A DNA stretch of 64,000 nt from Ginglymostoma cirratum. Its lineage: Eukaryota. The stretch is taken from NCBI GenBank assembly GCA_024137785.1, contig JAHRHZ010000016.1:36043543-36107542 (forward strand), in the 5' to 3' direction. The position numbers were made by a program, and so were the translations under genes. The notes below the pieces were generated by a model, which saw nothing but the letters and a program-made list of their open reading frames with translations, was not told the DNA's origin and did no database searches. This document shows, one piece after another, positions 10,206 through 63,764 of the stretch; positions within the stretch are counted from its first letter, which is position 1; every line of letters starts with the position of its first letter.

Positions 10206-10495
10206 ATTAATAAAATAGAAAGCTGGCATCCTCTGTTTACCTGTTAAATGAGGAAATAATTTTAGAAAGTACAAACTGTGGCAATCCTCACTGTTTTGTC
10301 AATTTTCTCCTTCTTGCTTCCTCTTTGAAGAGGACCTTCTAGGTTTGGTTTCAGAACGCTAAGTGATTTGCCCAAGTGGACATTATTCATCTGAGTCCAG
10401 ACAGAGCATGAGTCAACTATGTCTTGAGGATACATTGTAGATTAACTTCTTATCATACATCTTCATTAAGTCATGCACATTGAACAAGAATAGTA

Positions 10496-11780
10496 ACAAA
10501 AACAGAAATTGCTAGAAAATCTCAGCAGGTCTGGCAGCATCTGTGGAGAGAAATCAGAGTTAACATTTTGGTTCCAGTGACCCTTCTTCAGAACTGATGG
10601 CAGCTAAGAAAAAGTTGTTTTTTACTCTACAGAAGACAGGGTGGGGGAAGGAGGGAAGAAGTAAACGATAGGTGGCGATAGAGCCCAGAGAGAGAGAAGA
10701 ACAGTTGGAGAGAAAAAGGAGTGGATAACGGTTAGTCCAGGAGAATGAACGGCTACTAATAGGGCTATTAGTGGCTAACAATGGGTTGCGTGTAATAGAC
10801 CATGTGATAACAAGACCTGATGTGTGGGGGTTGGGGTAAGGACATAGGAGGAGATGCTTCAGGCCTTAAAATTGTTGAACTTGATACTGAGTCTAGAAGG
10901 CTGTAGAGTTCCCAAGCAGGAAATGAGGTGTCGTTCTTCCACCCTGCGCTGAGCTTCACTGGAGCTCTGTAGGAAGTCTGAGACAGAGATGTTGGCCAGG
11001 GAACAAGGTGGCATGTCGAAGTGACAGGCAACTGGAAACTCAGGGTCTTTTTTGCCAACAGAAAACAGATGTTCTGCGAAGTGGTCATCCTGTCTACACT
11101 TCATTCCCCCAATGTAGAGGTGACCACATTGTAAATCGCGAATGCAGTAGACTACATTGTGTGAAGTGCAAGTAAAGTGCTGCTTCACCTGGAAGGTATG
11201 TTTGGGCCCTGGATACTGAGGAGGGAGGAAGTGAATGGGCAGGTGTGACACCTTCTTTTTCAGGGGAAGGATCTCTGGGGCTGTGGCAGTTGTTGGGAGG
11301 GAAGGAGGAATGGACCAGGGTGTCCTGGAGGAAACAGTCCTTGCGGAAGGCTGACAAGGGAGGGGAGGGATTATGTGCCTGGTGATGGCATCCTGTTGGA
11401 CGTGGCAGAAATAGCAGCTAATGATTCTCTGGATGTGGATCCTGGTGGGATGGCTGATAAGGACAAGGGGGATACCACCGCTATTGTTGGAGGGAAGAGA
11501 GATAGTGAGGGCTGAAGTGCAGGAGATGGTCCAACTCGCCTGAGGGCCCTATCAACTACAATGCTGGGAAATCCTCGGTTGAGGAAGCAGGTAGACATTT
11601 AAGAGGCCCAGAAGCTGGCATCATCAGAACAGATGCGATGGAAACAGATGAACTGGGAGAATAGAATAGAGTCTTTACAGGAAGTAGGGCATTAGCGTGT
11701 ATACTCAAAGTAACTGTGGGAGTCAGTTTTGGCTTGTAGTAGATATTGGTGGTCAGCCTATTCCCAGAAACGGAAACATG
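10496..11780 (-). mobile_element. 5'-truncated Penelope-like retroelement (RT thumb + GIY-YIG endonuclease + hammerhead-bearing 3' end)
   Basis: ORF 10859-11251 NVVYCIR…CGHLYIG…HFAEHL…PVACHF (GIY-YIG); FLNRGFP and NIYYKP.TDSHSY motifs; TSD ttgaacaagaatagta (10480-10495) / ttgaaggagaatagta (11781-11796). Confidence 0.9.
10552..10598 (-). ncRNA. Decayed minimal hammerhead ribozyme at the Penelope 3' end
   Basis: Minus strand: aucaguu-CUGAAGA-A-GGGUC-ACUG-GAACC-AAAAU-GUU-aacucugau; GAAAC has become AAAAU, consistent with CpG decay. Confidence 0.65.
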
Positions 11781-11849
11781 TTGAAGGAGAATAGTATCCT
11801 GGATAACTTCCCTCCCTAACCTTGGGTGCTGAGACCAAGTGAGATACCC

Positions 11850-14620
11850 AGTTCATCTTTGTATGGTTAATAGTATCTGAGAGTGTCTGGTCCTTCTTGC
11901 ATCACGTCAAGCAATTCTTCTATGATAATTCTGTAAAACTCCTTCAGATGTAGACCATTAGCTGTTTCTTGCTGAAGTTGTTTGCATTTGAACTGATCAA
12001 AATTTATCAAATTAACCTTAAGCACATCTCCCACTTTGATGTCCATACTGTCTATTCATAAATCTCATGGAATTTCTGCATTCTTTTTTGGGTTCAATAA
12101 TCTCACTGAGTATGAGGCAACCACTTTGCTACCAGATTTACAGCAGATATTAGAGTTTGCTCACTTGTTGGTGTAGTCTAAGTAACAGGCTTCTCAGTGG
12201 TTTATGCTAAATCATTTCAAATGGTTTGTGATCAGTTTCTGCAGGGAACCGCTAACTGAATAGGTTTAGGATTTTTTGATAGTAATACCAGAGACAAATG
12301 TTTCATGATCTAAGTTAGAATTGTTGGATTGCATTTGCAGCAGGCTTTTGGATCCAAACGCAATTGGCTTCTCATTTTGCTTAGTGCATGCTTCGAGCCC
12401 TTTCTAAGATGCAAAAAATCCAGGATGGTCTTCTTCCATGGGATACAAGCTTCTGCTGATAATCTGTTTGAGTGATTCATAGGTGTGTCAATGGTTTTCC
12501 TGTCACACTTATGCTATGTCTTTCCACACAAGCCCTCTTAACAAAGATGTTTTGTGGAAAAGTTTTGTGTGTATGGTGCTAGGAAGTTAAAAAATCCAAG
12601 AAGTCTTTGCTGGTCTTCTTTGTCTTAGGAGGTATGTGTTACACATTTTTGACTTTGCCTGAGTCAGGTTTAATCCCATAACCGAGTACATGGTGTGTAA
12701 TATACAGATAAATCAAACGTCAGTCTCTAGAAACAGTGGTGTTCTGAAATAAGTGATTTCTTGAGATTCCTCTGGCAAGCAAACTGACTAATATCCATGT
12801 TTATCGTTTGTCTTGGAAAATAAATTAGCTCTTGTGAATTTGGATTCAGTGTTTCTGGTGTTTGAATTACGTGTGGGCATCTTTTAAAGAAAAGGTTAGA
12901 AGCCTTTGGTTCAAACAAACCCTGATCATGCCATCTTTCTTTAACATGCTTAGAATATAACTGCTCGAGTCTGTGTGCTGACAAACATGATTGATAATAC
13001 CATCACGTTGCTTTTTTTCCCAGCTTACTCTTAAGATTCTCTTGCGCATACTGTGAGTGATTTTCTCTGAGCTAAAAAGCAGCATTGCCTTTAAAGTTTC
13101 CTATGGCACTGAACCTGTCTCAGTACAATTGCTGCAAGCCATGGACTGAGTCATTATGAGTATTCTTGGCTTCTTCCACTACAATTGGTATTTTAATCAT
13201 TTCATGAATGGTTACAATGTTGTGTTCTGTACACATCAGTAGTCTTCTATGCTGGTTCATTTGTGCCCACTAAATTGAACACTCATAGTTTTATTGCGAA
13301 CATACCAATATAAGGGAAGGTTGTCCCGTTATATATTGTATGTAGACATTTTGCTGTGGTCAGTTTTTTTGTACCATTGACTTCCAGGGATCAGGTACAC
13401 ATCCTTCAGAATCTTGACTAATAGGATGTTTGCACTGGTTCCTGTGTCAACTGTTGGTCTTGAGTATGTGTTCACTAATGTTTTGAGTACATGATGTAAA
13501 TAGTGGTGAAAGCGTTTAACTGTTTGACTTTGCCCACACAATGTGCCACATTCACAATGTGAAAAGTCTGTTTGCCTGCTGGTTGAATACTATTGCACTC
13601 TGGTCACCCTGTTCACACCTGGTCTAATTTGCTGCTAACCTCATGTATGTGGCTGGTTCATATAGATCTTTGGAGCACTCCTTATTGTTGCTGCCAAGTC
13701 ACTAGTTGTACCAGTTTTCGTGCATAGGTGATTCCAGTGTCCAGTTTTACCATATGATTTCTTTTATTCATTCATGGGATATGGGCGCATCTGGCTAGGC
13801 AGCATTTATTACCCGTCCCTAATTGCCCAGAGGACAGTTAAGAGTCAGCCACATTGTTGTGGTTGTGACTGGAGTCACATATAGGCAACATCAGGTAAGG
13901 ACAACAGATTTTCTTCCCCAAAGGACAATGGTGAATCAAATGGGTTTTTGTGACCATTAACAATAATTGCACAGTTGCCATTATGCTATCTTTTCATTCC
14001 GGATTTTTATTGAGTTCAAATTTCACTAACTGCCATGGTCGTATTTGAACAAATGAGCCCTGGGGTTATGGATTACTAATCCAGTGATTACCACTACCAC
14101 ACTACACAACTAACTCCCCCACTCGGGATCTTGGAATGTAGGACAGCCTCACAATGGTTGCAACAGACTGCAGTTTCCACATAGCTTCTGTACCAACACT
14201 GATAATTGCATCAAATTCTTACAGATATTGTTGTCTGGCTACAATGGCTTCATATTTTCTGGTATCTTTTAGCAGTCTGTGGCTGTCATGAACTTCCTTA
14301 CTCTCCAGAAGTCTTTTTGGAATGCTTTGAAGAATGTAGAAGTTACAGCCAGGCTAACTATCTGCTCAGATGGCTCAGCCTCTGAAAAATCACAGTCCTC
14401 TCCCTTGTCACAGCATCTACTAATGAACTAATCAATTAATTCTTGTGGCTGTTATCTATAAAATATCAACTCTAGCTGGTGAATTCTAACATTAATTTTT
14501 ACACAAAGATGATTCTTCAGCATCTCCCACAGCTTAGTGTGATCTCTTTGGTCCTCTTTTGTAATGGTTATTTTTATACTAATTGCTATTTAATTTGGTT
14601 CTGCAATGGCTAAATCTAAA
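11850..14620 (-). mobile_element. Degraded Ty3/Gypsy internal region (gag, protease, RT, RNase H)
   Basis: VDTGTSANIL protease (ORF 13329-13541); GIINHVCQHTDSSS…KKDGMIRVCL RT (ORF 12867-13085); KPIAFGSKSL RNase H at about 12345-12375. Confidence 0.8.
13762..14118 (-). mobile_element. SacSINE1-like Deu-domain SINE inserted in the Gypsy relic
   Basis: L2-like tail, Deu-core-like ggtaaggacaacagattttcttccccaaaggac, tRNA-like head at the right end. Confidence 0.7.
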
Positions 14621-22191: not shown

Positions 22192-22423
22192 TGAAAATAG
22201 AAGTTGCTGGAAAAGTTCGGCAGGTTTGGCAGTATCTGTGAAGAGAAATCAGAGTTAATGTTTAGGGTCCAGTGACCCTTCCACAGAACTGTTCTGTGAA
22301 GGGTCACTGAACCTGAAACGTTAACTCTGATTTCTCTACACAGATGCTGCGAGACATGCTAAGCTTTTCCAGCAACTTCTGTTTTTGTTTCTGATTTACA
22401 GCATTTGCAGTTCTTTTGGTTTT
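22192..22423 (+). mobile_element. Penelope-derived fold-back element, family A
   Basis: About 95 bp inverted arms centred near 22290; TSD tattttcacaagtaa (22177-22191) / tattttcccaagtaa (22424-22438); arms match 10496-10595. Confidence 0.9.
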
Positions 22424-24778: not shown

Positions 24779-25023
24779 AAATAAAAACCGAAAAAACTGC
24801 TGATGCTGTAAATCAGGAACAAAAACAAAGTAGCTGGAAAGCCTCAGCAGGTCTGGCAGCATCTGTGCAGAAAAAATCAGAGTTAACATTTCGGGTCCAG
24901 CGACCCTTCCTAAGAACTCTGTTCTGTTCTGAGGAAAGGTCAGTGGACCCAAAACATTAACTCTGATTTTTCTTCACAGGTGCTGCCGGACCTGCTGAGC
25001 TTTTCCATCAACGTTGTTTTTTT
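24779..25023 (-). mobile_element. Penelope-derived fold-back element, family A
   Basis: Inverted arms around 24915; TSD tcatttttaggcat (24765-24778) / tcacgtttaggcat (25024-25037); decayed hammerhead cores. Confidence 0.9.
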
Positions 25024-25120
25024 TCACGTTTAGGCATGCCTAGTACTGTTCCTAGCATGCCCTCCTGCGCTCTTCATTGAACCACAGTTGATCTGCTGGG
25101 TTGATGGAAATCATGGAGCG

Positions 25121-27075: not shown

Positions 27076-28194
27076 AATGACACTTTGATGTTCTTGTAAG
27101 GAGGCATGACCAATTACTCCAATTAATTACATTAATTCAGGACGGCATCAAAAAGAGGGTCCATTTGAAGTTGTTATTGTTCGTAATTCATTGTTATGAT
27201 AATATGGCTGAAAGGTTTCCCCACCCCTGAATTAGATTAGATAATATTTGATGTTTGATAACAGACCGAGGAACTCATTATTACATATTCAATTCTCATA
27301 CATTGCAGAAAAATAACTAAAAAGATAGGACACAGAATTAGATTATTTTTTAACCTCCTCCCAAAGCTGTCTGTTGCGTTTGTCCTTGACCCATGCACAG
27401 AGTCTGATTTAAATGCTGAGGAACACCTCAACTTTCAACGAATGTAACTGCTATTTCAGAGATCTGTGACAGAAGTGCAGTACTGACATCCTGACAAATT
27501 GTCCTTCCCACTGTATTAAACATAAGATTCACAAGTTTTGAAGTGCATTCCTCTACAGGCTCAGCACAAAATGGTTAAGCTATCCACATGAAGATCCATT
27601 GTCGACACAGCACAAATTGATCCGGGATCAACAAGAGGGCTAGAACGGCATTTGTGTCCCTGAGTGACCGAAATGGGAACTATATTAGCCAGAGTTCTCA
27701 CTGTAAATTATTATCCAGCAATTGAAGCTGGGTGTCAAATGAAGACAGAATTGATTCAGCCTGACTGTGATATTTCTTTACAGTTGAATAAGCTAATTGA
27801 CACATGAATAAGTACCACTTCAGAATGATACCAGAAGGTGCCCAGGAGATTCAATGGGCAAAAGCTGGTTTTCAGGCACTGAAGCTTCGATGAGCATCCA
27901 ATCAAAGAGATGCACTCTGCACATTGGAATCACAGAATGCAGACCAGTGGCAACCGCACTGCTGGTGGGCTGAAAGCTCGAAAGCTAGCATGTGTGGGCT
28001 GTGGTACAAGTTACAGCTGGCCTGCACTTCATAAAGGGGAAGTGCTTTCTGGTTGTAGAAGGTGGTGAAACAATCCCCAAAAAATGCTTCTGAGGAGAAA
28101 TAAAGATTTCAGAGGAGTAGCAGATCAGACAGACGGTTCATATTTTCTCCAATGGAGTGTTTGAAGTCTTAGTCCAGGAAGCAAACGTGAAGAC

Positions 28195-28255: not shown

Positions 28256-28897
28256 TTTTTGTGAGGCAGGTTGGTTTTCCGCAGGGGTAGAGGAGGTCAT
28301 CAAGCCAAACATCATATAAAGGGAATAGAAGCAAAAGCAACAGAGGTTCAGTTCAAGGAGTTTGACCACAAGAATCTGGTTACAGCGCCACAAAAACTTC
28401 AATGATCTCACAACCCTATCTCACAGCTTCTGCATATTTTCAATAATAAGGTTGTGTCAGGCACATTATGTACATCTTGCAACATACTCATTGATCATTG
28501 CCTCTTTCTTACAAGGAAAACATAGCAAATAATAAGGTGGAGACTGGTATGCCTGCTTCTGAATCCCTTGAGGGAGGCAGTGCTGTGAATTTTGGGATTG
28601 CAGTGTTTGAGGCTGATGCAAGTGGCATCACTGAGACTATCCACGGTGACTATGGTGCTGCCTATTCACCTTCTCAAATTCAACTAAATCCCCATCCTGC
28701 TAACTGGGATGAATTGCAAACCATGTGACCATGGACTTGTGCTTTCAAATTATTAAGATTGTTCAACAATATGCTGATTCATTTCAATTCTGGACATGTT
28801 ATAACCCCGAGTGAGGAGGGACAATTGGTTCACATTTTTAATTCAGCCGTTTCTCATTCGGTCTCAACAAGGTTGATTTCAAGAGGATTCTTTCCCA

Positions 28898-28987
28898 ATT
28901 CTGGGGAAGGGTCACTTGAACCAAAACAGTAACTCTGATTTCTCTCCACAGATGGTGCCAGACCTGCTGAGCCTTTCCACTAATTTG
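28898..28987 (+). mobile_element. Family A single arm with decayed hammerhead
   Basis: ttctggggaagggtcacttgaaccaaaacagtaactctgatttctctccacagatg…gacctgctgagc. Confidence 0.7.
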
Positions 28988-29643
28988 TTGCTGCTCATTT
29001 CCTCCATGTCTACCTTTCCTTAATCTAAATGTATTTATGTTTTAAAAGGAGCCAAATTAACCAGGTTTCCTCCAATTTAATTAAAGTAAGTAGGTAAATG
29101 AGAGAAGGTAATAAAATGTGACACACAGATTAGAAATATGAATTGAGTAAAAATCACAGTTGGTTAATAGGCTGTTGTCATGTTTCCTTCTTGATGGTGA
29201 CATAACTGGCTTGTCTGGCTTCCAGGCCTCAGACTAAGAATCTTCCTAGGGCGTCTAATAGCTGTCCCCAAGCTATGACCTTCATATAGCACTAGCAAGC
29301 ACTTCAGCCATTCATACCTTCAGGCCATGGGTAGAAGTTGCTTTTAACTCTGGTCTTTTTGTACATTACTGGTTGGGGCATAATCCGTAGGAAGTAATTT
29401 TCTGCTAAGTGTAGTCAACCCCTCATTAAATCTGTCTCCACAGCAGATCACAGACCAGTTTGTTTTAGCTTATCTGTTTTAAGTCCTTTTAACACCCTCA
29501 GATGTGACATTCCATTATTCCTCTGCAGACTTTGTTCCTCTTAAATAAAAACCAAAAAAACTGTGGATGCTGTAAATCAGGAACAAAAACAAAGTTACTG
29601 GAAAAGCTCAGCAGGCCTGGCAGCATCTGTGGAGTAGAAAACA

Positions 29644-29683
29644 GAGTTAACGTTTCGGGTCCGGTGACCCTTCCTCAGAACTC
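29644..29683 (-). ncRNA. Minimal type I hammerhead ribozyme, intact core
   Basis: Minus strand gaguu-CUGAGGA-A-GGGUC-ACCG-GACCC-GAAAC-GUU-aacuc: 5 bp stem I, 5 bp stem II, palindromic ACGU in place of stem III. Confidence 0.8.
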
Positions 29684-29688
29684 AGGAA

Positions 29689-29728
29689 GGGTTCTGAGGA
29701 AGGGTCACTGGACCTGAAACGTTAACTC
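29689..29728 (+). ncRNA. Minimal type I hammerhead ribozyme, intact core
   Basis: ggguu-CUGAGGA-A-GGGUC-ACUG-GACCU-GAAAC-GUU-aacuc; predicted cleavage after 29723. Confidence 0.75.
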
Positions 29729-30207
29729 TGTTTTCTCCTCCACAGATGCTGCCAGCCTGCTGAGCTTTTCCAGCAACTTTGTTTTAGTTCCTCTTAGACA
29801 GTCACTGAATTTACATCCTTTTAAAGTCTGCTCACTGTTCTGCACTTAAGTTGGACTTCAAGTTTGCAAGTATTTCTACATTAGTTAGCTCACCAATGGC
29901 TTTACTTCATCAGGTTGACGTGACACAGCCTTTGCTTTGGACTGTGGTCTTGGGTCTCGGTTAGATAGTTTACTCCCTGAAATCCTTTGTTGCTCTGTGC
30001 AGGCCACTAAACCAGGCTTTTAAATGTTTGACTGGTATTGGTAGGTGAATTAACCCATGGTCTCTTGGCTGAGAGGTTTCAATCATGACACGTTCACCTG
30101 ATTTTTCATAGCTGCCTTGGAAATTTTCAAGTGCTCTCAAGCTATTTCACAGACTCTCATGAATTGCTCCCAGGATGCTTGTTAGTCTAACATAGAGACT
30201 TTGTAGA

Positions 30208-30294
30208 CAACAGTGTGGAGCTGGAAGAACACAGCAGGCCAGGCTGCATCAGAAGAGAAGGAAAGTTGATGTTTCAGGTCGGGACCCTTCTTCA
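30208..30294 (-). mobile_element. Family C single arm
   Basis: cagtgtggagctggaagaacacagcaggcc…gatgtttcaggtcgggacccttcttca; matches 35975-36062. Confidence 0.75.
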
Positions 30295-31667: not shown

Positions 31668-33180
31668 ACCATAAGACTTCAAGACATAGGAGCAGAAATT
31701 AGGCCATTCAGCTAATTGAGTCTGCTCTGCCATTCAATCATGGCTGATAAGTTTCTCAACCCCATTCTCCCGCTTTATCCCTATAACTCTTGATCCCCTT
31801 GACAATCAAGAACCTATCTAGCTCCGTCTTAAATATACTCAATGACATGGCCTCCACAGCCTTCTGTGGCAGTGAGATTCACCACTGTCTGGCTGAAGAA
31901 GTGTCTTCTTATCTCTGTTCTAAAAGGTCTTCCCTTTACTCTAAGGCTGTGCCCTCGGCTCCTAGTGTCTCCTACCAATACAAACATCTTCCGAACATCT
32001 ACTCTCTTCAGGTCATTCAGTATTCTGTAAGTTTCAATTAGATCCCCACTCATCCTTCAAAACTCCATCGAGTATAGACCCAGAGTCCTTAAACATTCCT
32101 CATATGTTCCTTATGTGTCCTTAAACGTTCCTCATAAGCTTTTCATTCCTGGGACCATTTTTGTGAATCTCTTCCTAACCCGCTCCAGGGCCAGTACATC
32201 TTTCCTGAGATATGGGGCACAAAACTGCACACAATATTCCAAATGTGGCCTGATCAGAGCCTTATAGAGCAATGGAAGTACATCCCTGCTTTTATATTCA
32301 AGTCCTCTCAAAATGCCAAAATTGCATTTGCCTCCCTAACTACCTACTCAACCTGCAAGTTTACCTTGAGAGAATCCTGAACTAGAACTCCCAAGTCTCT
32401 TTGCACTTCAGACTTCTGAATTTTCTCCCCATTTAGAAAATAGTCCATGCTTTTATTCTTCTTACCAAAGTGCATGACCTCATACTTTCCCACGTTGTAC
32501 TCCATCTGCCACTTCTTTGCTCACTTTCCTAACCTGTCCAAATCCTTCTGCAGCCTCCCTGTCTCCTCAATACTACCTGCCCCTCTACCTATCTTTGCAT
32601 TGTCTGCAAACTTAGCCAGAATGCCCACAGTTCCTTCATCTAGATCATTAATGTACAAAGTGAAAAGTTCTTGTCCCAACACTGACCCTTGTGGGACACC
32701 ACTTGTCACCGGCTGCCATCCTGAGAAAGACCCTTTTATCCATACTCTCTGCTTTCTGCCAGACAGCCAATCTTCTATCCATATTAGTACCTTGCCTCTA
32801 ACATCATGGGTCCTTTATTTTATTCAGCAGCCTCTTGTGTGGCACCTTGTCAAAGGCCCTTTTGAAGTCCAGGTAGATAATATCCATTGGCTCTCCTTGG
32901 TCTAACCTGCTCATTATTTCCTCAAAGAATTCTAATAGATTTGTCAGGCATGACCTCCCCTTGATGAAGCCATGCTGAATTTGCCCTATTTTAACATGCA
33001 CTTCCAAGTATTCAGAAATCTCATCCTTCACAATGGACTCTGAAATCTTACCCATGAGCAAGGTTAGGCTAATTGGCCTGTAATTTTCAGTCTTTTGCCT
33101 ACTCCCTTTTTAAACAGTGGTGTCACATTCGCAATATTCCAGTCCTCTGGGGCCCTCCCTGACTTGAGCGATTCTTGAAA
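31668..33180 (-). mobile_element. 5'-truncated CR1 LINE
   Basis: QHGFIKGRSCLTNLLEFFEE, YLDFKRAFDKVPH, GVPQGSVLG, KFADNAK; ccataagac tail; closely related to 37906-39400. Confidence 0.92.
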
Positions 33181-34090
33181 GTAATACACAATCTCAGGAG
33201 TGCCTTTACGGGATTTGCAGCTGTAGTCAGAGCCATAGCCTGGCTTGCTATATTGTCTGAATTACCCTCATTTTCAACATGGAGTGTATGGGCTGCAATA
33301 AATCTCACTGGTTTTCACAGTAGTTTCATCTCACTGGGTTTTACAGTAGTTTCCAGTTGGCACAGACACATTCCACCATTTGGCAGCTACATCAGACACG
33401 CTTCTTGATCTCACTTTTCATCTCAGCACCACTCTTTCTATCCTAATGAGGGCTCCCAGAATTTCCTTCTCTCATGGGTGTTAGTTTTTATGTTTGCCTC
33501 TCTAGCTGAATCTTTTCCAATGTGAGAGCCTGCCTTGCCCCTGTCACTCTGTATTCCTCCAGATGTGTTCTTATGGTGAAGGGGATGGAGTTTTTGAACT
33601 CCTTCAGAATATTACTTCACAAAGTTCTGCCGGTTGGCTTCTGTTTTAAATGCCAGTACCCATTTGTCAAAAGCAGGCTATTCAAGCCTGTTGAGTTCCA
33701 GACATCTCTGCTCAGGCCATTTCCTGGGGGCATGTGTCTCACGCTAACTGGTATGTGCTTAATATAGTTATTTTTGCAGCCTCGTAGTAAACAGCACTGT
33801 CCTCTGGCAAGATATAACAAACTTTGTGAGCTTTCCCTGAAAATTTACTCTGAAGTGGTAAGGCCCAATGCTGGACTGGAACCTAACTCTCATAGATACT
33901 AGGAGCAGAGGAAGGCCATTTGACTCTTCAAACTTGCTCCTCTGTTCAATATGATCGTGGCTGATCATTCATCACAACACCATATTCTTGGTGAGAGATA
34001 AAAGGTACTGCAGATGCTGGAGAATCCGAGATAACAAGCATGGGGCTGGATGAACACAGCAGGTCAAGCAGCATCATAGGAGCAGGAAAA

Positions 34091-34124
34091 CTTGACGTTT
34101 CGGTCCTAAACCCTTCATCAGAAA
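34091..34124 (-). ncRNA. Minimal hammerhead ribozyme (one stem II mismatch)
   Basis: uuu-CUGAUGA-A-GGGUUUAGGACC-GAAAC-GUC-aag. Confidence 0.7.
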
Positions 34125-34138
34125 ATGAATCACAAAAT

Positions 34139-34172
34139 TTTCTGATGAAGGGTTTAGGCCCGAAACGTCAAG
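34139..34172 (+). ncRNA. Minimal type I hammerhead ribozyme, intact core
   Basis: uuu-CUGAUGA-A-GGGU-UUAG-GCCC-GAAAC-GUC-aag; predicted cleavage after C34169. Confidence 0.82.
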
Positions 34173-35216
34173 TTTTCCTGCTCCTATGATGCTGCTTGAC
34201 CTGCTGTGTTCATCCAGCCCCATGCTTGTTATCACCATATTCTTGGTTTCTCTCCATATCCCTCGATGCCATTAAAACCTAAAAATGTATCTCTTTCTTG
34301 AATATATTCAGTGACTTGGCCTTCTATGGTAGCAAACTCAACAGGTTCAGCACCTCTAAGTGAAGAAATTTTTCTTCACTTCAGTCCTAAATGGTCTATC
34401 CCATATCCTGAGACTGTGACCCTGGTTCTAGACTTGCCCAACGGGGCAACATCCTTCCTGCATCTAGTCTGTTTAGCCCTGTTAGAATGTTACATGTTTC
34501 AATCGATCCCCTCTCATTCTTCTAAATTCAAATGAAATCAGGCTCAGCTGAACCAATCCCTCCACATAAACGGTCCTGCCATTCCCACTGTTAGTCGAGT
34601 GAACCTCTGCTGCATTCCCTCTCCAATAAGCATATCCTCTTTCAGGTAGAGGGATCAAAATTACACACATTATTCCAGGTACAGTCTCACTGAGTCTCTG
34701 TATAACTGCTGTAAGACATCCCCACTTCTAAACTCTAAATCCTCTTGCAATAGAGTATAACATATCAGTTGTTTTCCTAATTGATTGATACGCCTGCCTG
34801 TTTACTTTCATCGACTAGTGTACATGGAAACCCAGATCCCTTTTTACATCACATTTCCCAACATATCACCATTTAAATAAAACTCTGCATTTTGATTTTT
34901 CACACCGAAGTGTACAACTTCATGTTAACTACGTTATACAGCATCTGCCATGTATTGGCCACACACTCACCATGCACTTTTTTTTGCTTGCTCATGGTTG
35001 CGTGCCCTCTATTTGCCATTTCTGTGCATTTTTGGCAGTGCTGTCTCCATTGTAGCTAATAGAAAAACTTTGCACAGAATGTGCGTTGTATGCACAAATA
35101 AGAACATGACAATAGGAATGGAGTAGACCAAAACTGTCTTCCAAGCCTCCTCCATCATTCAATTTGGCCACAGTTAATCATCAGCCTTAATTCCACTTAC
35201 CCATTCATTTCCCTTA

Positions 35217-37905: not shown

Positions 37906-40900
37906 TAAGACCATAAGACATAGGAGCAGAAATTAGGCCATTCGGCCTATCGAGTCTGCTCCGTCATTTGATCATGGCTGATAAGTTCCTCAACCCTATT
38001 CTCCCACTTTCTCCCCGTAACCCTTGATCCCCTTGATAATCACGAACCTATCTATCTCCGACTTAAATATACTCAATGACCTGGCCTCCACAGCCTTCTG
38101 TGGCAGTGAATTCCATAGATTCACCACTCTCTGGCTGAAGACGTTTCTCCTTATCTCCATTCTAAAAGGTTTTCTCTTTACTCGAAGGCTGTGCCCTCGG
38201 GTCCTAGTCTCTCCTACCAATGGAAGCATCTTCCCAAAATCCACTCTGTCCAGGCCATTCAGTATTCTGTAAGTTTCAATTAGATCCCCTCCCCCATCCT
38301 TCTAGACTCCAATGAGTATAGTCCCAGAGACCTCAAACGTTCCTCATATGTTAAGCTTCTCATTCCTGGGACCACGTTCGTGAATCTCCTCTGAACCCGC
38401 TCCAGGGCGAGTACATCCTTCCTGAGATATGGGACACAAAACTGCACACAATACTCCACATGTGACCTGACCAGAGCCTTATAAAGCCTCAGTAGTACAT
38501 CGCTGTTTTATATTCAAGACCTCTCAAAATAAATGCCAATATTGCATTTGCCTTCCTGACTATTGACTCAACCTGCAAGTTTACCTTGGGAGAATCCTGG
38601 ACTAGAACTCCCAAGTCTCTTTGCACTTCAGACTTCTGAATTTTCTCCCCATTTAGAAAATAGTCCATGCTTTTATTCTTCTTACCAAAGTGCATGACCT
38701 CACACTTTCCCACGTTGTACTCCATCTGCCACTTCTTTGCTCACTATAACCTGTTCAAATCCTTCTGCAGCTTCCCCGTCTCCTCAATACTACCTGTCCC
38801 TCCACCTATCTTTGTATTGTCTGCAAACTTAGCCAGAATGCCCACAGTTCCTTCATCTAGATCATTAATGTATAAAATGAAAAGTTGTGGTCCCAACACT
38901 GACCCTTGTGGAATGCCAATTGTCACCGGCTTCCATCCTGAGAAATACCCTTTTATCCCCACTCTCTGCTTTCTGCCAGACAGCCAGTCTTCTATCCATG
39001 CTAGCACCTTGTCTCCAACACCATAGGCCCTTATCTTACTCAGCAGCCTCCTGTGTGGCACCTTATCAAAGGCGTTCTTGAAGTCCAGGTAGATAACATG
39101 CATTGGATCTCCTTGGTCTACCCTGCTCGTTAATTCCTTGAAGAATCTGAGCAGATTTATCGGACTGACCTCCCCTTGATGAAACCATGCTGACTTTGCT
39201 TATTTTACTGCACACTGCCAAATATTCAGAAATCTCATCCTTCACAATGGACTCCAAAATCTTACCCACTATCGAGTTTAGGCTAATTGGCTTGTAATTT
39301 TCCATCTTTTGCCTTACTCCCTTTTTAAACAGGGGTGTCACGTTAGTGATTTTCCAGCCCTTTGGGACCCTCCCTGACTCTAGTGATTCCTGAAAGATCA
39401 CCACTAACACCTCCACTGTCTCTTCAGCTATTTCCTTTAGAACTCTGGGGTGTAGTCCATCTGGTTCAGGTTATTTATCCACCTTCAGGCCAATCAGTTT
39501 AACTAGCACCTTTTCCTTGGTGATGGCCACCACACTCAGCCCTGCCTCCGACTCTCTTGAATTTTTGGGATATTACTCATGTCTTCCACCGAGAAGACTG
39601 ACACGAAGCAATTATTCAGTTCCTCAGCCATTTCCTTGTTCCCCGTGACTATCTCTCCACCGTAATTTTCCAGTCGTCCAATGTCCACTTTTGTCTCTCT
39701 TTTGCCCTTTATATATCTAAAGACATTCTTACAGTCTTCATTTATATTACTGGCTAGCTTACCCTCATATTTAATCTTCTCCCTCCTTATTTCTTTTTTT
39801 GTTGCCCTCTGATGGTCTTTGTAAGCTTCCCAATCCTCTGGTTTCTCACTGCCCTTCGCCACATTATATGCTTTCTCTTTTGCTTTTATGCTATCCCTGA
39901 CTTCCTTAGTCAGCCATGGTTGCCTCATCCTCCCTGTACCATGCTTATTTTTCCTAGGAATGAATTTTTGCTGTGTCTCCCGAATTACTCCCAGAAACTC
40001 CTGCCATGGCTGTTCAACTGTCTTTCCTGCTAGACTCCTCTTCCTGTCAATTCTGCTCAGCTCCTCCTTCATACCTCAATAGTTGCCTTTATTCAGCTGT
40101 AATACCGTTACCTCTGATTCTATCTTCTCCCTCTCAAATTGCAGAGTAAATTCTATCATATTATGATCACTGCCCCCTAAGGGTTCCTTCACCTTAAGCT
40201 CCCTTATCAAGTCTGCCTCATTGCACAACACTAAATCCAGTATTGCCTGTCCCCTTGTGGGCTCCACCATGAACTGCTCCAAAAAGCCTCCTCATAGACC
40301 TTCCACAAACTCCTTTTCTTGCAATCCACTACCAACATGATTTTCCCAGTCCACCTGCATTTTGAAATCCCCCATGATCATTGTGACTTTGCCTTTCTGA
40401 CACACCTTTTCTATCTCCCGGTGTATCTTACGCCCCAGCTCCTGACTTCTGTTTGGAGGCCTGTACACAACTCCAACTATTGTTTTTTGACCTTTGCGGT
40501 TCCTCAACTCTCTCCACACAGATTCTACACCATCTGACCCTACTTCATTTCTTCCTATTGATTTAATTTCATTTCTTACTAATAAGGCAACCCCAACCTG
40601 CCTACCTTTTCGATCGGATGAATATCCTTGAATATTCAGTTCCCAATCCTGATCCCCTTGCAGCTACGTCTCCGTGATGCCCACCATGTCATGCCTGCCA
40701 ATTTCGATCTGTGCTACAAGCTTACTTACCTTATTCTTTATACTGTGTGCATTCAGATATAACACCTTCAGTCCTGTATTAACCGTCCCTCTTCTCATTG
40801 TCATTCATTTATCCAGTGTGCTTGAAATTTGATTGCTAGCCCTTTCCAAACACTCTGTCCTATTTGTGTCTGTGCTGGAGACTTTAATAACCTCTCCTGA

Positions 40901-42530
40901 GTTCTCCTTCCCCGTTATTTCTTTCATATTTTTCCACGTAGTTGAATCCATCACTGCATATGTTAACCTGCTGCTTTGTTTCCCACTGGGGCAAGTATCA
41001 CCATTCCCTTCCCCATCACTTTCTAGTTTAAAGTCCTGTCAACCAGCCTATTTATCCTTTTCATTAGAACATTGGTCCCAGCTCGAATCAGGTGGGGACC
41101 ATCCCGACGGTACAGATCCTTCCTGTTCCAATACTGATGCCAGTGCCCCATGAAAATGAACCCCTCTTTCCAGCACCACTCTTTTCGCCACGTGTTTACT
41201 TCCCTTATTCTCATGCCTCTATGCCAATTAGCATGTGGCTTGGGTAGTAATCTGGAGATTATAACCCTTGAGGACCTGTTTTTTAATTTGGTTCCTAGCT
41301 CATGATAATCTCTGAACAGGTCCTCTTTCCTAGTATTGCCTATGTTTTTTGTTCTGGCGTGGACCACAACTATTGGATCCTCCCCCTCCCGCTCCAATAT
41401 CCTTTCAAGCTGGTCAGAGATATCCCTTACCCCGACACCGGGCAGGCAACACACCATGTGCGACTCTCAATCCTGTTTACAAAGGATACTATCTATCCCC
41501 CAAAATATAGGATCCCCTACAACTACCACCTATCTTTTTGCTCCCCCCTCTTGAATGGCCTCCCGTACCACGGTGCAGTGGTCAGTTGGCTCATCATCCC
41601 TCCAGCCCTTTTCCTCATCCACACAGGGAGCAAGTACCTCGTACCTGTTGGACAAGGTCAAGAGCTGAGGCTTCTCTGTTCCTGACTGCAGAATCCCTCT
41701 ACCTGCCTCACTTGCAGTCACCCCCTGCTGTCCCTGGCCACTGACCAAATTTGAAGCACTTAATCTACCAGATGTGACTGCTTCCTGAAACACAGCATCC
41801 AGGTACTTCTCCCCCTCCCAGATGTGCCGCAGTGTTTGAAGCTCCGGTTCCAGCTCATCAATTCTGAGCCGAAGTTCCTCGATTCTGAGCCGAAGTTCCT
41901 CGAATAACCAACACTTGCTGCAGATGTGGTCGCTGCAGTTCGCAATGGGATCAGCTAGCTCCCGCATCATCCAGCTACAACACATCACCTGGCCAGCCAT
42001 TTCTACTTAGCTAATTACTTCATTAATTTATATAATTTATTACAATGAATTAATTAAATTTGCTGATACTTCTTGGTATTTTTCAAATTTAGTGCAGATT
42101 TCCTACCAGCCAATCAGGTCACAGACTCCCTGTGACATCACCCCAGTTTTTTTGGCAGCTAGTGCCCCGAGCTCTGGCCCAGTTGTAGTCACCTCTGCTC
42201 TGCTGCTCCTCCCTCCGACAGCTTCCCGCCAAACAAAAGCAGAGTAAAAGAAAGGAAAAAAAAACTCGCCTTATTGATCCTCCACATAGAGTTTTTTTTT
42301 GGTTAGAGGAGGAGGATGGGTGGGAGACACTACATGTGTATTGTTTCAGGTTTAGCCACTGCCAGAATATATGGTTTTACTTACCCAGCAGTCCCCTCGT
42401 GCTCTCCTGGCTCCCGCCGCTCAACAAGGAAGGCTGCAGTCTCACGAGGTAAGTCTTTTATACAGAAGGCTTACCTTCCCGGTTGCCCTCGTGCTTTCTC
42501 CCAGCTCCCGCCGCAAAACAATGAAGTCTA
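37906..42530 (-). mobile_element. Full-length CR1 LINE 2 (5' UTR, zinc-finger/coiled-coil + esterase ORF1, APE-RT ORF2), frameshifted, nested in CR1 LINE 1
   Basis: ORF1 pieces 41530-42000 (C..C…CSKC, leucine zipper) and 41023-41457 (SGNH-like CLPG…DGPHL); ORF2 GVVYRPP, MGDF, LDLVL, GSDH, DFKNAFDKVPH, FADN; ataagaccataagac tail. Confidence 0.93.
41861..41902. repeat. 21 bp tandem duplication (x2) in CR1 ORF1
   Basis: attctgagccgaagttcctcg twice; encodes EELRLRI EELRLRI. Confidence 0.95.
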
Positions 42531-44110
42531 AGGTATATTCCTTCAGAATATTCCTAAGGTATCTGCAATCTCTCTACACATCTGCTTCTCTAGTAGTTGC
42601 TGGCTATTTGGGTGTCTACAATATAATCCCAATAGAGTTACTATCCCCTTCTTGTTTCTGAGTTCTAACCATATGGCCTCATTGGATGACCCCCAAAGAA
42701 TACCCTCTCTAAGCACTGTTACTATGCCCTCCCTTATCAAAAGGGCAACTCTCCTTCATCGCTTACGTGTACTTCTGTCACATCTGTAGTTTCTGTATCC
42801 TGGAAAATTGAGCTGACAGTCCTGGCCTTCTCTCAGCCAAGTTTCTGTTATGGCTGTAATATCCCAGTCCCCAGAGTCAGTCCATGCTCTGAACTCATCT
42901 GTCTTACCAGTCAGGCCTCATGCATTAAGATAAATCCACTTTAAACCAGAAGTCTTTTCCCTTCTTTTCCTGTAACCCTGGCTATCCTGAATAGTAAACT
43001 TGCTCTCGATGGCTAATGATTTTACCCTGACTTCTCGATGGCACCCCTCTTATTCAGAGCCCCACCGCAGCACTCCCTGCCCCCCCCCGCCAAACTCGTT
43101 TAAACCGCCCCAGGTAACACTAGCAAATCTCCCCGCAAGGGTATTGGACCCCTCCGGTTCAAATGTATCTCATCCCACTTTTGCAGGTCACCTCTACCCC
43201 AGAAGAGATCCCAATGATCCAAGAACTCAAAAGCCTGCCGTCTACACCAGCACCTCAGCCACACATTAATCTGGCCCATTTTTCTATTTCCATCCTCATT
43301 GGCACATGGCACTGGGAGTAATCCTGAGATCACTACCCTTGAGGCCTGCTTTTTAACTTCTTACCTAACTCCCTATACTCATTTCTCAGGACCCCATCTC
43401 TTTGTCTACTTATGACATTTGTACTGATGTGCACAATCACCTCTGGCTGTTCACCCTCTCCCTTCAGAATGTTCTGCAACCGCGCTGAGACACCCTTGAC
43501 CTTGGCACATAGAGGCAACATGCCATCTTGGTGTCTCTTCTGTGACCACAGAATCTACTGTCTATTCTCCCTCATGGTATTGCTCTGTCTGACTGCACTC
43601 TTTCTCTCAGCACTGGTCACAGCGCCACTGACCTGACCGCTGCTGCACTTCCCTGATAGGTCATCTACCCAACAGTGTCTGAAGCATCCTATTGAGGCGA
43701 ATGGCCACAGAGGAACCCTGCACTATCTGCCTTCCCCTTTTACCTCTTCTGGTGGTCACCCAGCTACCTGCAGCCTGCACCTTAGGAGCAACCACTTAAC
43801 TATAGCTCTTAACAATGATATTCTCTGCACCCTGGATGTTCCTGAGTGCATCCAGCTCCAGCTCCAGTTCCCTAACGTGGTCTGTCAGGAGCTGCAACTG
43901 GGTACACTTCTCACAGGTGTAGCCACCAGGGACACTGGAAGTCTCCCTGATCTCCCACATCCTGCAAGAGGAGCATGCCACTGCCCTAACTGCCATCCCT
44001 ACCGCCTTCAGTCCAGACAGAAAGAAAGTAGAGTTAAAGAACCCTTATCTGCTCTTACCTGTACCCCTGCTCAGCCTCCTCATGCCAAAACCTCTCGCGC
44101 AAACACAATA
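42531..44110 (-). mobile_element. CR1 LINE 1, 5' part (EN N-terminus, ORF1 esterase and zinc finger)
   Basis: EAIWLELRNKKG…GLYCRHP continues into NRVIFVGDFNF at 37905; ORF1 CSSCRMWE…CEKC; VIVHISTN, DEIHLNRRG. Confidence 0.9.
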
Positions 44111-45618: not shown

Positions 45619-45677
45619 ACACCAAAATAACCTGATAAAAATGTCAATAAATCAAAAGACACACCCGATTTCCATCA

Positions 45678-45800
45678 GAGATAAAAGGTACTGCAGATGC
45701 TGGAGAATCCGAGATAACAAGCATGGGGCTGGATGAACACAGCAGGTCAAGCAACATCATAGGAGCAGGAAAACTTGATGTTTCAGGCCTAAACCCTTCT
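45678..45800 (-). mobile_element. Family B single arm, truncated inside the hammerhead
   Basis: Near-identical to 33995-34116. Confidence 0.9.
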
Positions 45801-47067: not shown

Positions 47068-47133
47068 GAGCAGGTCTGGTAGCATCTGTACATAGATAAC
47101 CAGAGTTAACATTTTGAGTCCAATGATCCTTCA
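47068..47133 (-). mobile_element. Family A single-arm fragment
   Basis: gagcaggtctggtagcatctgt…cagagttaacattttgagtcc. Confidence 0.65.
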
Positions 47134-48807: not shown

Positions 48808-48905
48808 GAGATAACACAGTGTGGAACTGGAGGAACACAGCAGGCCAGGCAGCATCAGAGGAACAGGAAGGTTGCCGTTTCGGGTTGGGACCTTTCTTCA
48901 GAAAA
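48808..48905 (-). mobile_element. Family C single arm with near-intact hammerhead
   Basis: Minus strand CUGAAGA-A-AGGUCCCAACCC-GAAAC-GGC (cleavage triplet mutated). Confidence 0.8.
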
Positions 48906-51317: not shown

Positions 51318-51525
51318 AATGGGAGTGCCGGCGTTGGAATGGAGTTGGCAAAGTCAGAAGTCACATGACACCAGGTTATAGTCCAATAGGTTTATTTGAA
51401 ATCACAAGCTTTCAGAGCACTGCTGCTTCGTTAGGTGACCTGACAAAGGGGCTATGCTCCAAAAGCTTGTGATTTCAAATAAATCTGCTGGGCTACACGC
51501 TGGTGTCATGTGACTTCTGACTTTA
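51318..51525 (-). mobile_element. Fold-back element, family E (AGCU-type hammerhead)
   Basis: Arms 51350-51436 / 51438-51524; TSD tccagttctct (51307-51317) / tccagttccct (51526-51536); arm consensus cac-CUGACGA-A-GGAGC-AGU-GCUCC-GAAAG-CUU-gug. Confidence 0.85.
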
Positions 51526-57386: not shown

Positions 57387-57556
57387 AAAAACTGAAAGAA
57401 CTGCGGATGCTGTAAATCAGGAACAAAAACAAAGTTGCTGGAAAAGCTCAGCAGGTTTGGCAGCATCTGTGAAGGAAGAAACAGAGCTAACGTTTCAGGT
57501 CCAGTGACCCTCAGCAAGACCTGCTGAGCTTTTCCAGCAACTTTGTTTTTGTTCCT
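57387..57556 (-). mobile_element. Fold-back element, family A, centre deleted
   Basis: Perfect 15 bp TSD gaaatgatactgaat (57372-57386 / 57557-57571); long arm joins a short inverted arm at about 57515. Confidence 0.9.
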
Positions 57557-57944: not shown

Positions 57945-59040
57945 GAAGACTACTGTTTAACAATTTAACCACAGATAGCATTAGGTGAATTGAGATTGAC
58001 TGTCCTTGACATCAAGACAACATTTGACCAACTATGGTATCAAACAGCTGTAGCTAAACTAGAACCAATGGGAACCAGGAAAGAGTGAGGACGCTGCTGG
58101 TTGCAGTTATATCCAGAATGAAGAAATGTGGTTGGAGTTCAATCATCTCAACCCCAGGATACTATTGCAGGAGTTCCTTAGGGCAGTGTCCTAAGCCCAA
58201 CTAACTTCAGTTGCTTTACAAATGACCTTCTGTCCATCACAAGGTTAGAAGTATATGTTTTGTTCCTCAGAAACTGAACCAGTCCATGTCCACTTGCAAC
58301 AAGGCCAGATAACAACTAGGCTTGGGCTGATAAGTGGCAAGTAACATTTGTGCCACGCAAGTGCCAGGCAATGACTATCCAAAGCAACAGAGAATCTAAC
58401 AATCTCTCATTGATAATCGATGGCATTACTATTGCCAAAACCCCATTGTTACCATTCTTGGCTTACCATTGACCAGAAACTGAACTGCAGCAACCATATA
58501 AGTACGGCAACTACAAGAACGGGTCAGAAACTTGGAATACTGCGGTGAATAACTCATTTCCTGCTTCCCCAAAGCCTGTCCATCATTCCCAAGACAAAAC
58601 TAAAAGTGTGATGGAATACATTCCACTTCCTGGATGACTGCAGCTCCAACTACTCTCATGAAGCTCTAGGTCAAAGTACTACTTGTTTGGTACTCTATCC
58701 AACACCTTCATCACCAAGTGGTAACTTATCAAGTCTTTATTGACAGCATTTTCCAAACACATGACCTCTACCACCTAGAAGGCCAAGAGCAGCAGACACA
58801 TAGGAATACCACCAGGTGCAAGTTCTCATCCAAGTCACACATCAGCCTGACTTGAAACTACTGCTGCTCCTTCACTATTGTTGGCTCAAAAAGTCTTCAT
58901 ACTCTCTTTCTAACAGCACTATCGGTGTCCCTATAACCAAGGACTGCAGTGTTCAAGAAGTCAATTCACTAACACCCTCTCCAGGGCAATTACAAATGGA
59001 AAATAAATGCTGCCACATCCCATGAACAACTAAAAATGAA
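57945..59040 (+). mobile_element. L2 LINE 3' portion
   Basis: LDIKTTFD, GVP*GSVLSP, WADKWQVTF motifs; L2 tail at about 58940-59035. Confidence 0.8.
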
Positions 59041-59055
59041 ATAATCCAATCCTAT

Positions 59056-59160
59056 AAAGGAGCGAGACTCCGAAAGCTAGTGTTTTCAAATATACCTGTT
59101 GGACTATAACCTGCTGTCGTGTGATTTTTGACCTAGTGCCAGCCCAGGCACCTCCACATC
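59056..59160 (+). mobile_element. Family E single arm
   Basis: aaaggagcgagactccgaaagctagtg…cctgttggactataacctg; begins within hammerhead stem II. Confidence 0.75.
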
Positions 59161-61672: not shown

Positions 61673-61760
61673 AGATAACAAGGTGTAGAGCTGGATGAAC
61701 ACAGCAGGCCAAGCAGCATTCGAGGAGCAGGAAAGCTGATGCTTCGGGTCTAGACCTTTC
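61673..61760 (-). mobile_element. Family D single arm (related to B/C)
   Basis: gataacaaggtgtagagctggatgaacacagcaggccaagcagcat…gatgcttcgggtctagacc. Confidence 0.8.
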
Positions 61761-62610
61761 CCCAGAAGGTACTATGTAATTTTTTTTACTCAATCGTTGT
61801 CTTCAGTTGTACTTCCTGTGTCCTGACTTAGCGTGATTTGTTCAGTCAGTCAGCTATGTTATGCCCAGTAACATCTTTAAGCACAGAATCCATGCAATGT
61901 GTGCATGTGTTGGAGGATTGTGAAGAGCAGACTGACACGTGGAGTTGAGGTGAAGATGAGATCAGCCCTAATCATGTCAAATAACAGTGCAAGCTCGAGT
62001 GGCTAGATTGCCTACTCCTGCTCCTATTTCTTATGTCTAATATTATAACCATATAAATAGAGTCATAAATAAACTTCAAGATATCTGTCTTCGTAAGAAC
62101 ACACGTCTCTTTGGTATGTGTTACAGAAACCAAAATACATTTAAAAATACAGCAAATGACATCAATCCCAATCACTTTTTCCCCCAATTCCCACTTACTT
62201 CAATTTTGCTAAGGAATTCAATTGCTGTTTTGATGTCATGGGCAACCAGTCAGCTCACCTCTGGAGCTCAAATTTTTGTCCATTTTCAGGCCAAACATAA
62301 ACTGACCATCAATTAACAGACTATTGACGAGCAAATGTCATTTATTAGCACTGTCAACAACATAGTGACAGAATGTTATCAAGTGAAAATTGTCTCTAAA
62401 GCAATCAGATATCAGAAAATTTTTCTCTATGCATTTAGAGTATGGAGTTCTATGTCACAGAAAGTATTTGAGGCAGTAACACATTGAAATCTTTAAAAGA
62501 AACATGGATAAGTATACAAATGAGGGAAAAAGCTATGGTTAGAGAAAAAGATAGCTGGTTCAGCTTTGGATTATTTTGGCAAAATGCTGGCAAAAACATG
62601 AAGGGTTCCA

Positions 62611-62708
62611 TTTTCTGAAGAAGGGTCTAGGCCCGAAACATCAGCCTTCCTGCTCCTCTGATGCTGCTTGGCCTGCTGTGTTCATCAAGCTCTACACCTT
62701 GTTATCTC
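62611..62708 (+). mobile_element. Family D single arm with near-intact hammerhead
   Basis: uuu-CUGAAGA-A-GGGUCUAGGCCC-GAAAC-AUC (ACGU changed to ACAU, consistent with CpG decay). Confidence 0.82.
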
Positions 62709-62757
62709 AAGGGTTGCAGATCCTCACTTTGTGCTACAAAATCTTAATTTGTTGCCT

Positions 62758-63280
62758 AGATAACAAGCATGGGGCTGGATGAACACAGCAGGTCAAGCAG
62801 CATCATAGGAGCANNNNNNNNNNNNNNNNNNNNNNNNNNNNNNNNNNNNNNNNNNNNNNNNNNNNNNNNNNNNNNNNNNNNNNNNNNNNNNNNNNNNNNN
62901 NNNNNNNNNNNNNNNNNNNNNNNNNNNNNNNNNNNNNNNNNNNNNNNNNNNNNNNNNNNNNNNNNNNNNNNNNNNNNNNNNNNNNNNNNNNNNNNNNNNN
63001 NNNNNNNNNNNNNNNNNNNNNNNNNNNNNNNNNNNNNNNNNNNNNNNNNNNNNNNNNNNNNNNNNNNNNNNNNNNNNNNNNNNNNNNNNNNNNNNNNNNN
63101 NNNNNNNNNNNNNNNNNNNNNNNNNNNNNNNNNNNNNNNNNNNNNNNNNNNNNNNNNNNNNNNNNNNNNNNNNNNNNNNNNNNNNNNNNNNNNNNNNNNN
63201 NNNNNNNNNNNNNCCTGCTGTGTTCATCCAGCCCCATGCTTGTTATCTCGGATTCTCCAGCATCTGCAGTACCTTTTATC
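62758..63280 (+). mobile_element. Fold-back element, family B, spanning the assembly gap
   Basis: Both flanks match the 33993 copy in inverted orientation; TSD tcttaatttgttgcct (62742-62757 / 63281-63296). Confidence 0.9.
62814..63213. other. Assembly gap (400 N)
   Basis: Run of N. Confidence 1.
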
Positions 63281-63764
63281 TCTTAATTTGTTGCCTTATG
63301 ATTTTTAATCTTGTAAAATGCTTTATCCCACGAAAAGGACAATGGATAACTGGAATGCAGATCATTGAGGTTCTGAGTGTAATGTTCTTTTTTCACTTCA
63401 TCCAGTTTTTTTCCAACATTTTGTGATTTAAACTGAACATTGAGTTGTTCCTCTAGCCACATTAAAAAACCGATTTACTGCTTGAATGTCATCGTACGGC
63501 CTCATATCACTTTCAAACTCTATTACACTTTAATTAAATTAAATATTGCTTATTTTTCAGAATGAATGTCATTCCCACCAATAAGGAAAACTTTACCTTG
63601 GCTTTACGTGTCCAGCTTCAAATAATCAAAAGTATAATTCACAGAATCTCTTGTTCTATGTGATGATTTAGCAGAGTTAAATCTAAATCTAGGGCATTAA
63701 AATTTAATATTAGCCCCACACCTCTACTCCAAGGGTTGAGAGGGAGAAACAAAATTAAAATTTC

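Follow-up and report, generated by a model that had tools for sequence, protein, structure and literature searches.

The window analysed here (64,000 nt on contig JAHRHZ010000016.1 of the 4.36-Gb genome of the shark Ginglymostoma cirratum) contains eight small fold-back insertions and nine single arms, which are almost certainly truncated, inverted insertions of endonuclease-containing (EN+) Penelope-like elements (PLEs). Every arm corresponds to the 3' terminus of a Neptune-type PLE, namely the end of its pseudo-long terminal repeat (pLTR), with or without a tail. Inverted arms were present at all eight places where the initial annotation had reported palindromes (22192, 24779, 29544, 33993, 35938, 51318, 57387, and 62758), and in every one of them one arm was longer by a tail of 30–40 nt. 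This shared architecture was thus upheld, with target site duplications (TSDs) of 8–16 bp instead of the 10–16 bp given there. The arms sort into families A, B and C, with young and older subfamilies within B, in agreement with the several families recognized in that annotation.

Arm positions are counted from +1, the initiator (Inr)-like A at which arm 5' ends cluster. Family A supplied the head-to-head pairs (for which no strand applies) at 22192–22423 (tail on the right arm; arms starting at −1 and +2; 15-bp TSD with one mismatch, 22177–22191/22424–22438), 24779–25028 (tail left; short templated filler at the centre; 9-bp TSD, 24770–24778/25029–25037), 29544–29783 (tail left; filler copied from an arm; 13-bp TSD with one mismatch) and 57387–57556 (tail left; 15-bp TSD; right arm truncated below the hammerhead ribozyme [HHR]). 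The pairs at 33993–34231 (arms 99% complementary; tail left; 15-bp TSD) and 62758–63280 (tail right; 16-bp TSD; centre inside the 400-N assembly gap 62814–63213) belong to young family B, the pair at 35938–36141 (tail left; 14-bp TSD with one mismatch) to an older B subfamily, and the pair at 51318–51525 (tail left; exact 8-bp TSD) to family C. About nine single arms had been noted; nine were found, together with a short arm piece at 28193. They comprise family A arms at 10492 (described below), 28896–28989 (+; start at −1) and 47069–47132 (−; a fragment), family B arms at 30216–30294 (−), 45677–45799 (−; young, with a tail, truncated inside the HHR), 48808–48904 (−), 61673–61767 (−; with its own short TSD, called by eye) and 62612–62708 (+), and a family C arm at 59072–59147 (+). 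The arms at 48808 and 62612 both start at +2 and keep the core motif.

The arm at 10492 forms part of a longer insertion on the minus strand. The interval 10480–10595 is a family A pLTR end, with the Inr-like +1 (A at 10595), a minimal HHR and the body, and constitutes the 3' end of a 5'-truncated PLE. It is preceded by the PLE 3' untranslated region (UTR; 10596–10858), with a degenerate TATA-like stretch ~29 nt before +1, and by a frameshifted, 5'-truncated open frame (10859–11548) whose C-terminal part is a PLE GIY-YIG-like endonuclease. Pfam gave no match for this frame, and its intact relatives at L105 and L128 (L-numbers denote loci fetched from the genome for inspection) matched GIY-YIG below the cutoff. 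A protein search with the frame returned 108,732 first-look candidates genome-wide, 150 of which were scored; a family A arm lay behind the frame at 19/19 other loci fetched. Family B arms run into reverse transcriptase (RT) and endonuclease frames. Single frames carrying both RT and GIY-YIG were recovered for A and B, in broken copies (L101, L097, L105, L008, L018, and L128/L129, the last a near-full-length family B copy of 3.4 kb), with Pfam scores that are all below the curated cutoffs (RVT_1, E = 1e-5 and 4e-5; GIY-YIG, E = 4e-4 and 1e-2). RVT_1 was present in 21 of the 22 protein relatives listed, and the closest named ones came from Chiloscyllium (58–62% identity), in line with a shark element.

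A C-x4-C-x2-C motif precedes GIY-YIG in families A and B, and the family C arm continues into a frame with a similar Cys linker, the RT of this family not having been recovered. An extra zinc-finger-like Cys motif in the RT–EN linker is a trait of the Neptune clade (PMC8557442) and also marks Nematis; judged from the sequence, the linker points to the Neptune clade. Partial tandem pLTRs were seen at L308, L309, and L314. Insertions of autonomous Neptune-type PLEs with a truncated 5' end grade continuously in length, and the palindromes stand at the short end of that range. Two side observations concern the same proteins: a 39-bp near-perfect palindrome lies in the family B open reading frame (ORF), upstream of the RT region (block C111, 179273–179311, at L128), and a Neptune-like RT/GIY-YIG protein of Biomphalaria (P0007) is named 'E3 ubiquitin-protein ligase XIAP' in NCBI, which is likely a misannotation.

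These features match published EN+ PLEs of the Neptune clade, which have RT with a C-terminal GIY-YIG and Cys linker, a pLTR with a minimal HHR, an inverted 5'-truncated copy, a 30–40-bp tail at one end and a TSD (PMC3846280, PMC8557442); PMC4209133 describes minimal HHRs paired on opposite strands, and PMC6155905 and PMC8969392 were also consulted. In contrast to those elements, the arms in the shark are often cut to the last 95–135 bp, end at one sharp stop and reach ~280 arms per Mb, whereas the portions of these papers covered describe no 5'-end hotspot.

Abundance was assessed in a background set of 749,936 non-N bases from four regions, the window (denser than average) among them, after ~450 kb that read N had been removed from the 1.2 Mb retrieved. 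This set (hereafter 750 kb) contained 212 arms and 36 tight head-to-head pairs, from which ~1.2 × 10^6 arms and ~2 × 10^5 tight palindromes are estimated genome-wide, an extrapolation from four regions only. A 35-mer of young family B occurred in 29,842 exact copies across the genome, and the same variant lay back-to-back within 30 nt at 1,194 sites, with 6 of the 50 sites listed being duplicates across gaps. The great abundance predicted from the window alone was therefore borne out. Many young pairs border assembly gaps, which makes these counts uncertain.

A minimal-HHR descriptor gave 35 matches in the 750 kb against none in each of five shuffles of the same set. Moreover, stem I changes in register between families (AGTT/AACT, ATTT/AAGT, TCAC/GTGA, AGTC/GACT), as do stem II (GGGTC/GACCC vs. 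GGAGC/GCTCY) and the 15.2/16.2 pair (C-G vs. G-C). The descriptor excess and this covariation, which had been proposed as a check, indicate that the ribozyme fold is real at the level of the source elements. Rfam returned no HHR match at E ≤ 5 and only hairpin-driven miRNA models below the gathering score. The motif shares with the minimal HHRs of metazoan PLEs an extra base between positions 9 and 10.1, G10.1–C11.1, a palindromic 15.2/16.2 pair and a short helix I (PMC4209133). Cartilaginous fish are not named in the covered parts of that paper, which places opposite-strand dual motifs 100–700 bp apart in Schistosoma, whereas the cores described here are often <30 bp apart. A consistent A/C contrast in stem II that seemed to separate long from short arms was discarded as an ascertainment artefact, the query having borne a rare variant found in 1 of 26 unselected cores. 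The 750 kb also contained minimal-HHR types outside families A–C (stem II GTTA..TAAC and ATTA..TGAT; stem I AGTC/GACT), probably representing more PLE families.

The 5' ends of the arms are sharply defined. Among 99 of the first 100 exact matches of the young family B 35-mer, taken in genome order from two contigs, 48 arms ended within 8 nt upstream of this anchor, 2 ended at 12–100 nt and 39 extended >100 nt, with 10 censored by N. In the unselected 750 kb, arms started within ±5 of +1 in 42/80 (A), 38/100 non-N (B) and 4/10 (C) cases, and no arm started at −20 to −6. The stop lies 4–7 nt before the HHR core, and it sets the size of these elements. A further family A peak at +25 to +28 probably reflects subfamily divergence in stem II.

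The stop coincides with TATA-like and Inr-like motifs, as judged by their consensus sequences. The Inr-like A at +1 lies in TCAGTT (A), CCATTT (B) and TCACTT (C), and a TATA-like box precedes it: TATAAA at −29 in family A, TATTTA at −31 in family B and, in family C, TATAAA at −30, or at −33 in a second copy; the family A box was found at −28/−29 in 16 of the 22 endonuclease-linked copies elsewhere. The sequences upstream of +1 are otherwise unlike in the three families, and the sequence preceding each of the 42 stopped A arms matches neither that of any other copy nor any of 28 linked UTRs. TATA/Inr-like motifs have been noted in a rotifer pLTR (PMC3846280, PMC8557442). At the stop itself, 18 of the 48 parsed arms carried four or more T's instead of three, and a G preceded A+1 in 35 of 57 stopped arms (25/46 in non-inverted arms) compared with ~25% expected from composition. 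An untemplated 5' G is linked to the RNA cap. Such a G has been reported for L1 insertions (PMC4729875). Where synthesis had jumped from +1 to a position inside the 5' part of the ORF, a G was present in 5/7 cases, of which 2 could be microhomology, and three further G-ending joints occurred in RNA reads.

Units that read into the 5' end of the ORF, a class confined to the 5' end in a single-copy transcript, were fetched at 12 non-promoter loci, and 9 of these started at +1. A +1 unit directly preceded in tandem by an ORF 5' piece was observed at L219–L221, L002, L005, L006, L226, L317, L319, L321, L322, and L327; these are interpreted as the template jumping once run-off has occurred, in many cases with an extra G, and the direct duplications at L219–L221, L317, L321, and L322 are irregular. 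A splice acceptor at +1, as in Drosophila virilis, was rejected, since families B and C lack an AG at this position and neither 42 A arms nor 48 non-inverted B arms have an upstream exon in common. No prior report of the stop site or of shark palindromes was found in the literature searched, whose scope lay outside Repbase, Dfam, subscription papers (e.g., Arkhipova 2006) and supplementary figures. By contrast, publications already cover pLTR inversion, a tail on one side only and HHR pairs on opposite strands.

Most arm 3' ends fall on one of two sites separated by ~35 nt, and almost every pair combines the two: exactly one tail was present in 46 of 51 family B pairs, two tails in 3 and none in 2. 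This one-tail rule matches the two RT start sites and the two-strand extension shown in vitro for PAc, a Poseidon element of Anolis carolinensis (PMC11167929). At L310–L313, L315, L318, and L323, a third, minor 3' end lies ~13–20 nt beyond the tail, which suggests a further RT start site. A TSD was called in 17 of 28 pairs and measured 13–15 bp in 12 of these. Inversion points formed a continuum from 0 to >800 nt, and junction fillers were copied from the arms. In a comparison of 44 tight insertions, counted by hand, 37 junctions were different, while the simplest overlap junctions recurred 4, 3, 2, and 2 times. Each pair was made anew, probably by two priming events.

The best explanation of these data, and in our judgement a probable one, is twin priming combined with run-off at the RNA start of the element, which +1 would represent. 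The element enzyme would start an independent cDNA on each of the two nicked strands of the target, in place of a single cDNA that folds back. With +1 as the putative capped 5' end of the RNA, initiation ~100–135 nt downstream of this end would give a short run-off cDNA, much as retroviral minus-strand strong-stop DNA is a short cDNA running to the RNA 5' end. Host end-joining may then fuse the two cDNAs with a short, locally templated filler, leaving a TSD of 13–16 bp. The product would be a head-to-head pair of 95–135-bp 3'-terminal pieces without a promoter. Its RNA would form a single hairpin in which both ribozymes are locked, making it a dead-end insertion. The two primings and the inverted junction resemble the 5' inversions of L1 (PMC4729875), the difference from L1 and strong-stop DNA being two fixed priming sites inside the RNA in place of poly(A) or a tRNA. 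PAc likewise has two adjacent internal RT starts that define the tail, with both target strands cut and extended, a predicted dimer and uncleaved RNA as the main template; it differs in that its ORF starts in stem II, whereas the long frame of family B starts ~38 nt behind the tail (PMC11167929). The position of the cDNA end and the origin of palindromes are not addressed in that paper.

Several observations weigh against this explanation. Poly(A) RNA-seq, which is unstranded and mostly passive read-through, showed no pile of molecule starts, and the other RNA sets were of no help, one having 11 reads and two consisting of contigs, without starts or ends. The G excess was not significant compared with controls at other truncation points (35/57 vs. 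21/51, p = 0.053; 25/46 vs. 5/17, p = 0.07), so the cap signature is suggestive only, and the element's own sequence could have supplied the G in many contexts (TG-A, CAG-A). The first base of HHR stem I is +1 in both family A and family B. The internal promoter of D. virilis Penelope lacks a TATA box, and an intron end rather than a start site lies at helix I (PMC2377424, PMC4209133); the mapped start site there is 46 nt plus a 75-nt intron upstream of helix I. The two arms of a pair matched at four diagnostic sites in 27/51 pairs, against a random mean of 14 and maximum of 21; this also fits one shared template or fold-back, in a sample that mixes subfamilies of different age. Finally, units with ORF 5' sequence carried the 11-mer from upstream of +1 in 196/465 cases (42%) compared with 13,761/29,842 arms overall (46%), a comparison in which the search patterns were not identical. 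An earlier test of 5' copies gave 397/846 (47%) but was diluted, with 8 of 20 loci fetched reading <20 nt past the tail, and a repeat with a distal anchor also gave no clear difference. Products copied from the 5' end should nearly all stop, so that the 42% pass-through contradicts the simple model and needs an added step (a jump, a circle or tandem read-through). Either the stop is an internal pause, or almost every cDNA begins at a junction with ORF sequence behind it and about half of the products cross +1 through transfer to the 3' repeat, circular RNA or tandem read-through RNA; a circular RNA has been proposed in PMC4209133 and a tandem read-through RNA in PMC11167929.

The pause is the strongest competitor, although we regard it as unlikely. 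It keeps the PLE origin and twin priming, and ascribes the stop to an internal RT pause at the 5' edge of the hammerhead fold (the end of stem I, a bound protein or a C-rich tract). The indifference of pass-through to a following ORF, the position of +1 at stem I in A and B, and the lack of a pile of RNA starts would all be expected from it. However, the TATA/Inr spacing is kept across three unrelated upstream sequences, the family C stop, on the Inr A, precedes stem I by 3 nt, and the extra T's and the G excess resemble additions at the end of a template. Furthermore, a structured template usually halts a polymerase on the 3' side of the structure and not once the structure has been copied.

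In fold-back self-priming, the mechanism put forward in PMC3846280 for head-to-head PLE junctions, one cDNA or antisense template snaps back and copies itself. Arm-derived fillers and the frequent identity of arms at diagnostic sites speak for it, as do rare variants shared by both arms at L012 and L017. Against this, in 24 one-tail pairs with a resolved junction, the tailless arm reached >10 nt further 5' in 9, the tailed arm in 6, and both were equal in 9; a tailless arm holding 5' sequence that its tailed partner lacks is not obtainable from one fold-back. Moreover, tailless arms were inserted alone with their own TSD (L224, L267, L294), and the arms differed at subfamily sites in L222, L254, and L313. 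Fold-back as the general cause is accordingly quite improbable and, as the sole mechanism, contradicted; it may account for a subset.

Slightly less probable still is a self-propagating non-autonomous family, retrozyme- or SINE (short interspersed nuclear element)-like, in which whole units would arise from their own masters and the ribozymes would process the RNA. The high copy number and the recurrence of the simplest overlap junctions are what such a family would produce, and the initial annotation had described a multi-family system; the differing junctions and the continuum of arm lengths argue instead for truncated autonomous PLEs, and the unit contains no promoter. An HHR motif on each strand had been described wherever the centre is not deleted, but the CUGANGA..GAAA..NUH motif was intact on both strands in only two of the eight window palindromes, at 29544 (cores at 29678 [−] and 29694 [+]) and 33993 (34121 [−] and 34142 [+]). 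The left arm at 33993 has a mismatch in stem II, which leaves 29544 as the only palindrome with complete pairing on both strands. The cores were mutated at 22192, 24779, and 51318, and one was lost at 35938 (right core partly deleted) and 57387; in the 750 kb, only 5/36 tight pairs kept the strict motif on both strands. In a palindrome transcript of either direction the antisense arm comes first, and the predicted unpaired probability of the catalytic core was 0.0 in both directions, so that the modelled hairpin would lock both ribozymes and leave the palindromes as dead-end insertions. Nor was there a peak of arm 5' ends at the predicted HHR cut site (2/80 A and 2/122 B arms within 1 nt). The back-to-back ribozymes, once seen as a system, are thus better viewed as a by-product of inversion. 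Non-LTR (non-long terminal repeat) retrozymes (bioRxiv 10.64898/2026.07.22.740005) are likewise PLE-related, carry a type I HHR and occur in one chondrichthyan, but are head-to-tail tandem repeats with complete HHRs and their own replication, whereas the pairs here are head-to-head and each made anew. A DNA-transposon origin as miniature inverted-repeat transposable elements (MITEs) can be practically dismissed despite the palindromic look, since tabulation showed asymmetric termini without symmetric terminal inverted repeats, a variable TSD of 8–18 bp in place of a fixed short one, and continuity with RT/GIY-YIG frames, as the Penelope-derived origin first proposed had anticipated.

Under twin priming with run-off, the pass-through might be accommodated by a strong-stop transfer, which we put forward only tentatively. 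RT would always start near the RNA 5' end and run off at the cap after ~130 nt, and about half of the products would transfer to the 3' repeat, or use HHR-circularised RNA, and copy the promoter and the ORF. PAc requires the first 172 nt of the ORF although its RT starts at 111–118 (PMC11167929); a 3' pLTR that goes no further than the tail would have an incomplete binding site, which favours 5' initiation, an argument transferred from another clade. The stubs (~10^6) and palindromes (~2 × 10^5) could then be trapped intermediates, an equally tentative proposal. If true, strong-stop transfer would explain the tail, the pLTR and the regeneration of the promoter, called unexplained in PMC2377424; how pLTR and promoter are rebuilt in PLEs is an open question (PMC2377424, PMC8557442).

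The first in vitro PLE system appeared in 2024, and the very young and abundant family B offers a record of tens of thousands of independent reactions. The sharp TATA/Inr stop makes start-site mapping and the run-off/jump model testable. The stubs resemble MITEs or pre-miRNAs, will be misannotated as such, and are located at many assembly gaps. In addition, ~2 × 10^5 near-perfect hairpins are a likely source of double-stranded RNA; lizard Penelope is heavily A-to-I edited (PMC5625713).

Gaps of 400 N lie at the centres of young palindromes at window positions 62814–63213 and at many other loci, often with the junction duplicated on both sides. Independent PLE stubs lie tail-to-tail within ~50 bp at window positions 62612–62813 and in block W16 at 156824–157027 and 173659–173886, possibly reflecting a local target preference. 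The window also contains CR1/L2-type long interspersed nuclear element (LINE) fragments at 31671–43000, with RVT_1 frames at 36261–36713 and 38744–39199 and an esterase-like frame at 41023–41466, and the palindromes at 33993 and 35938 sit within or between these fragments.

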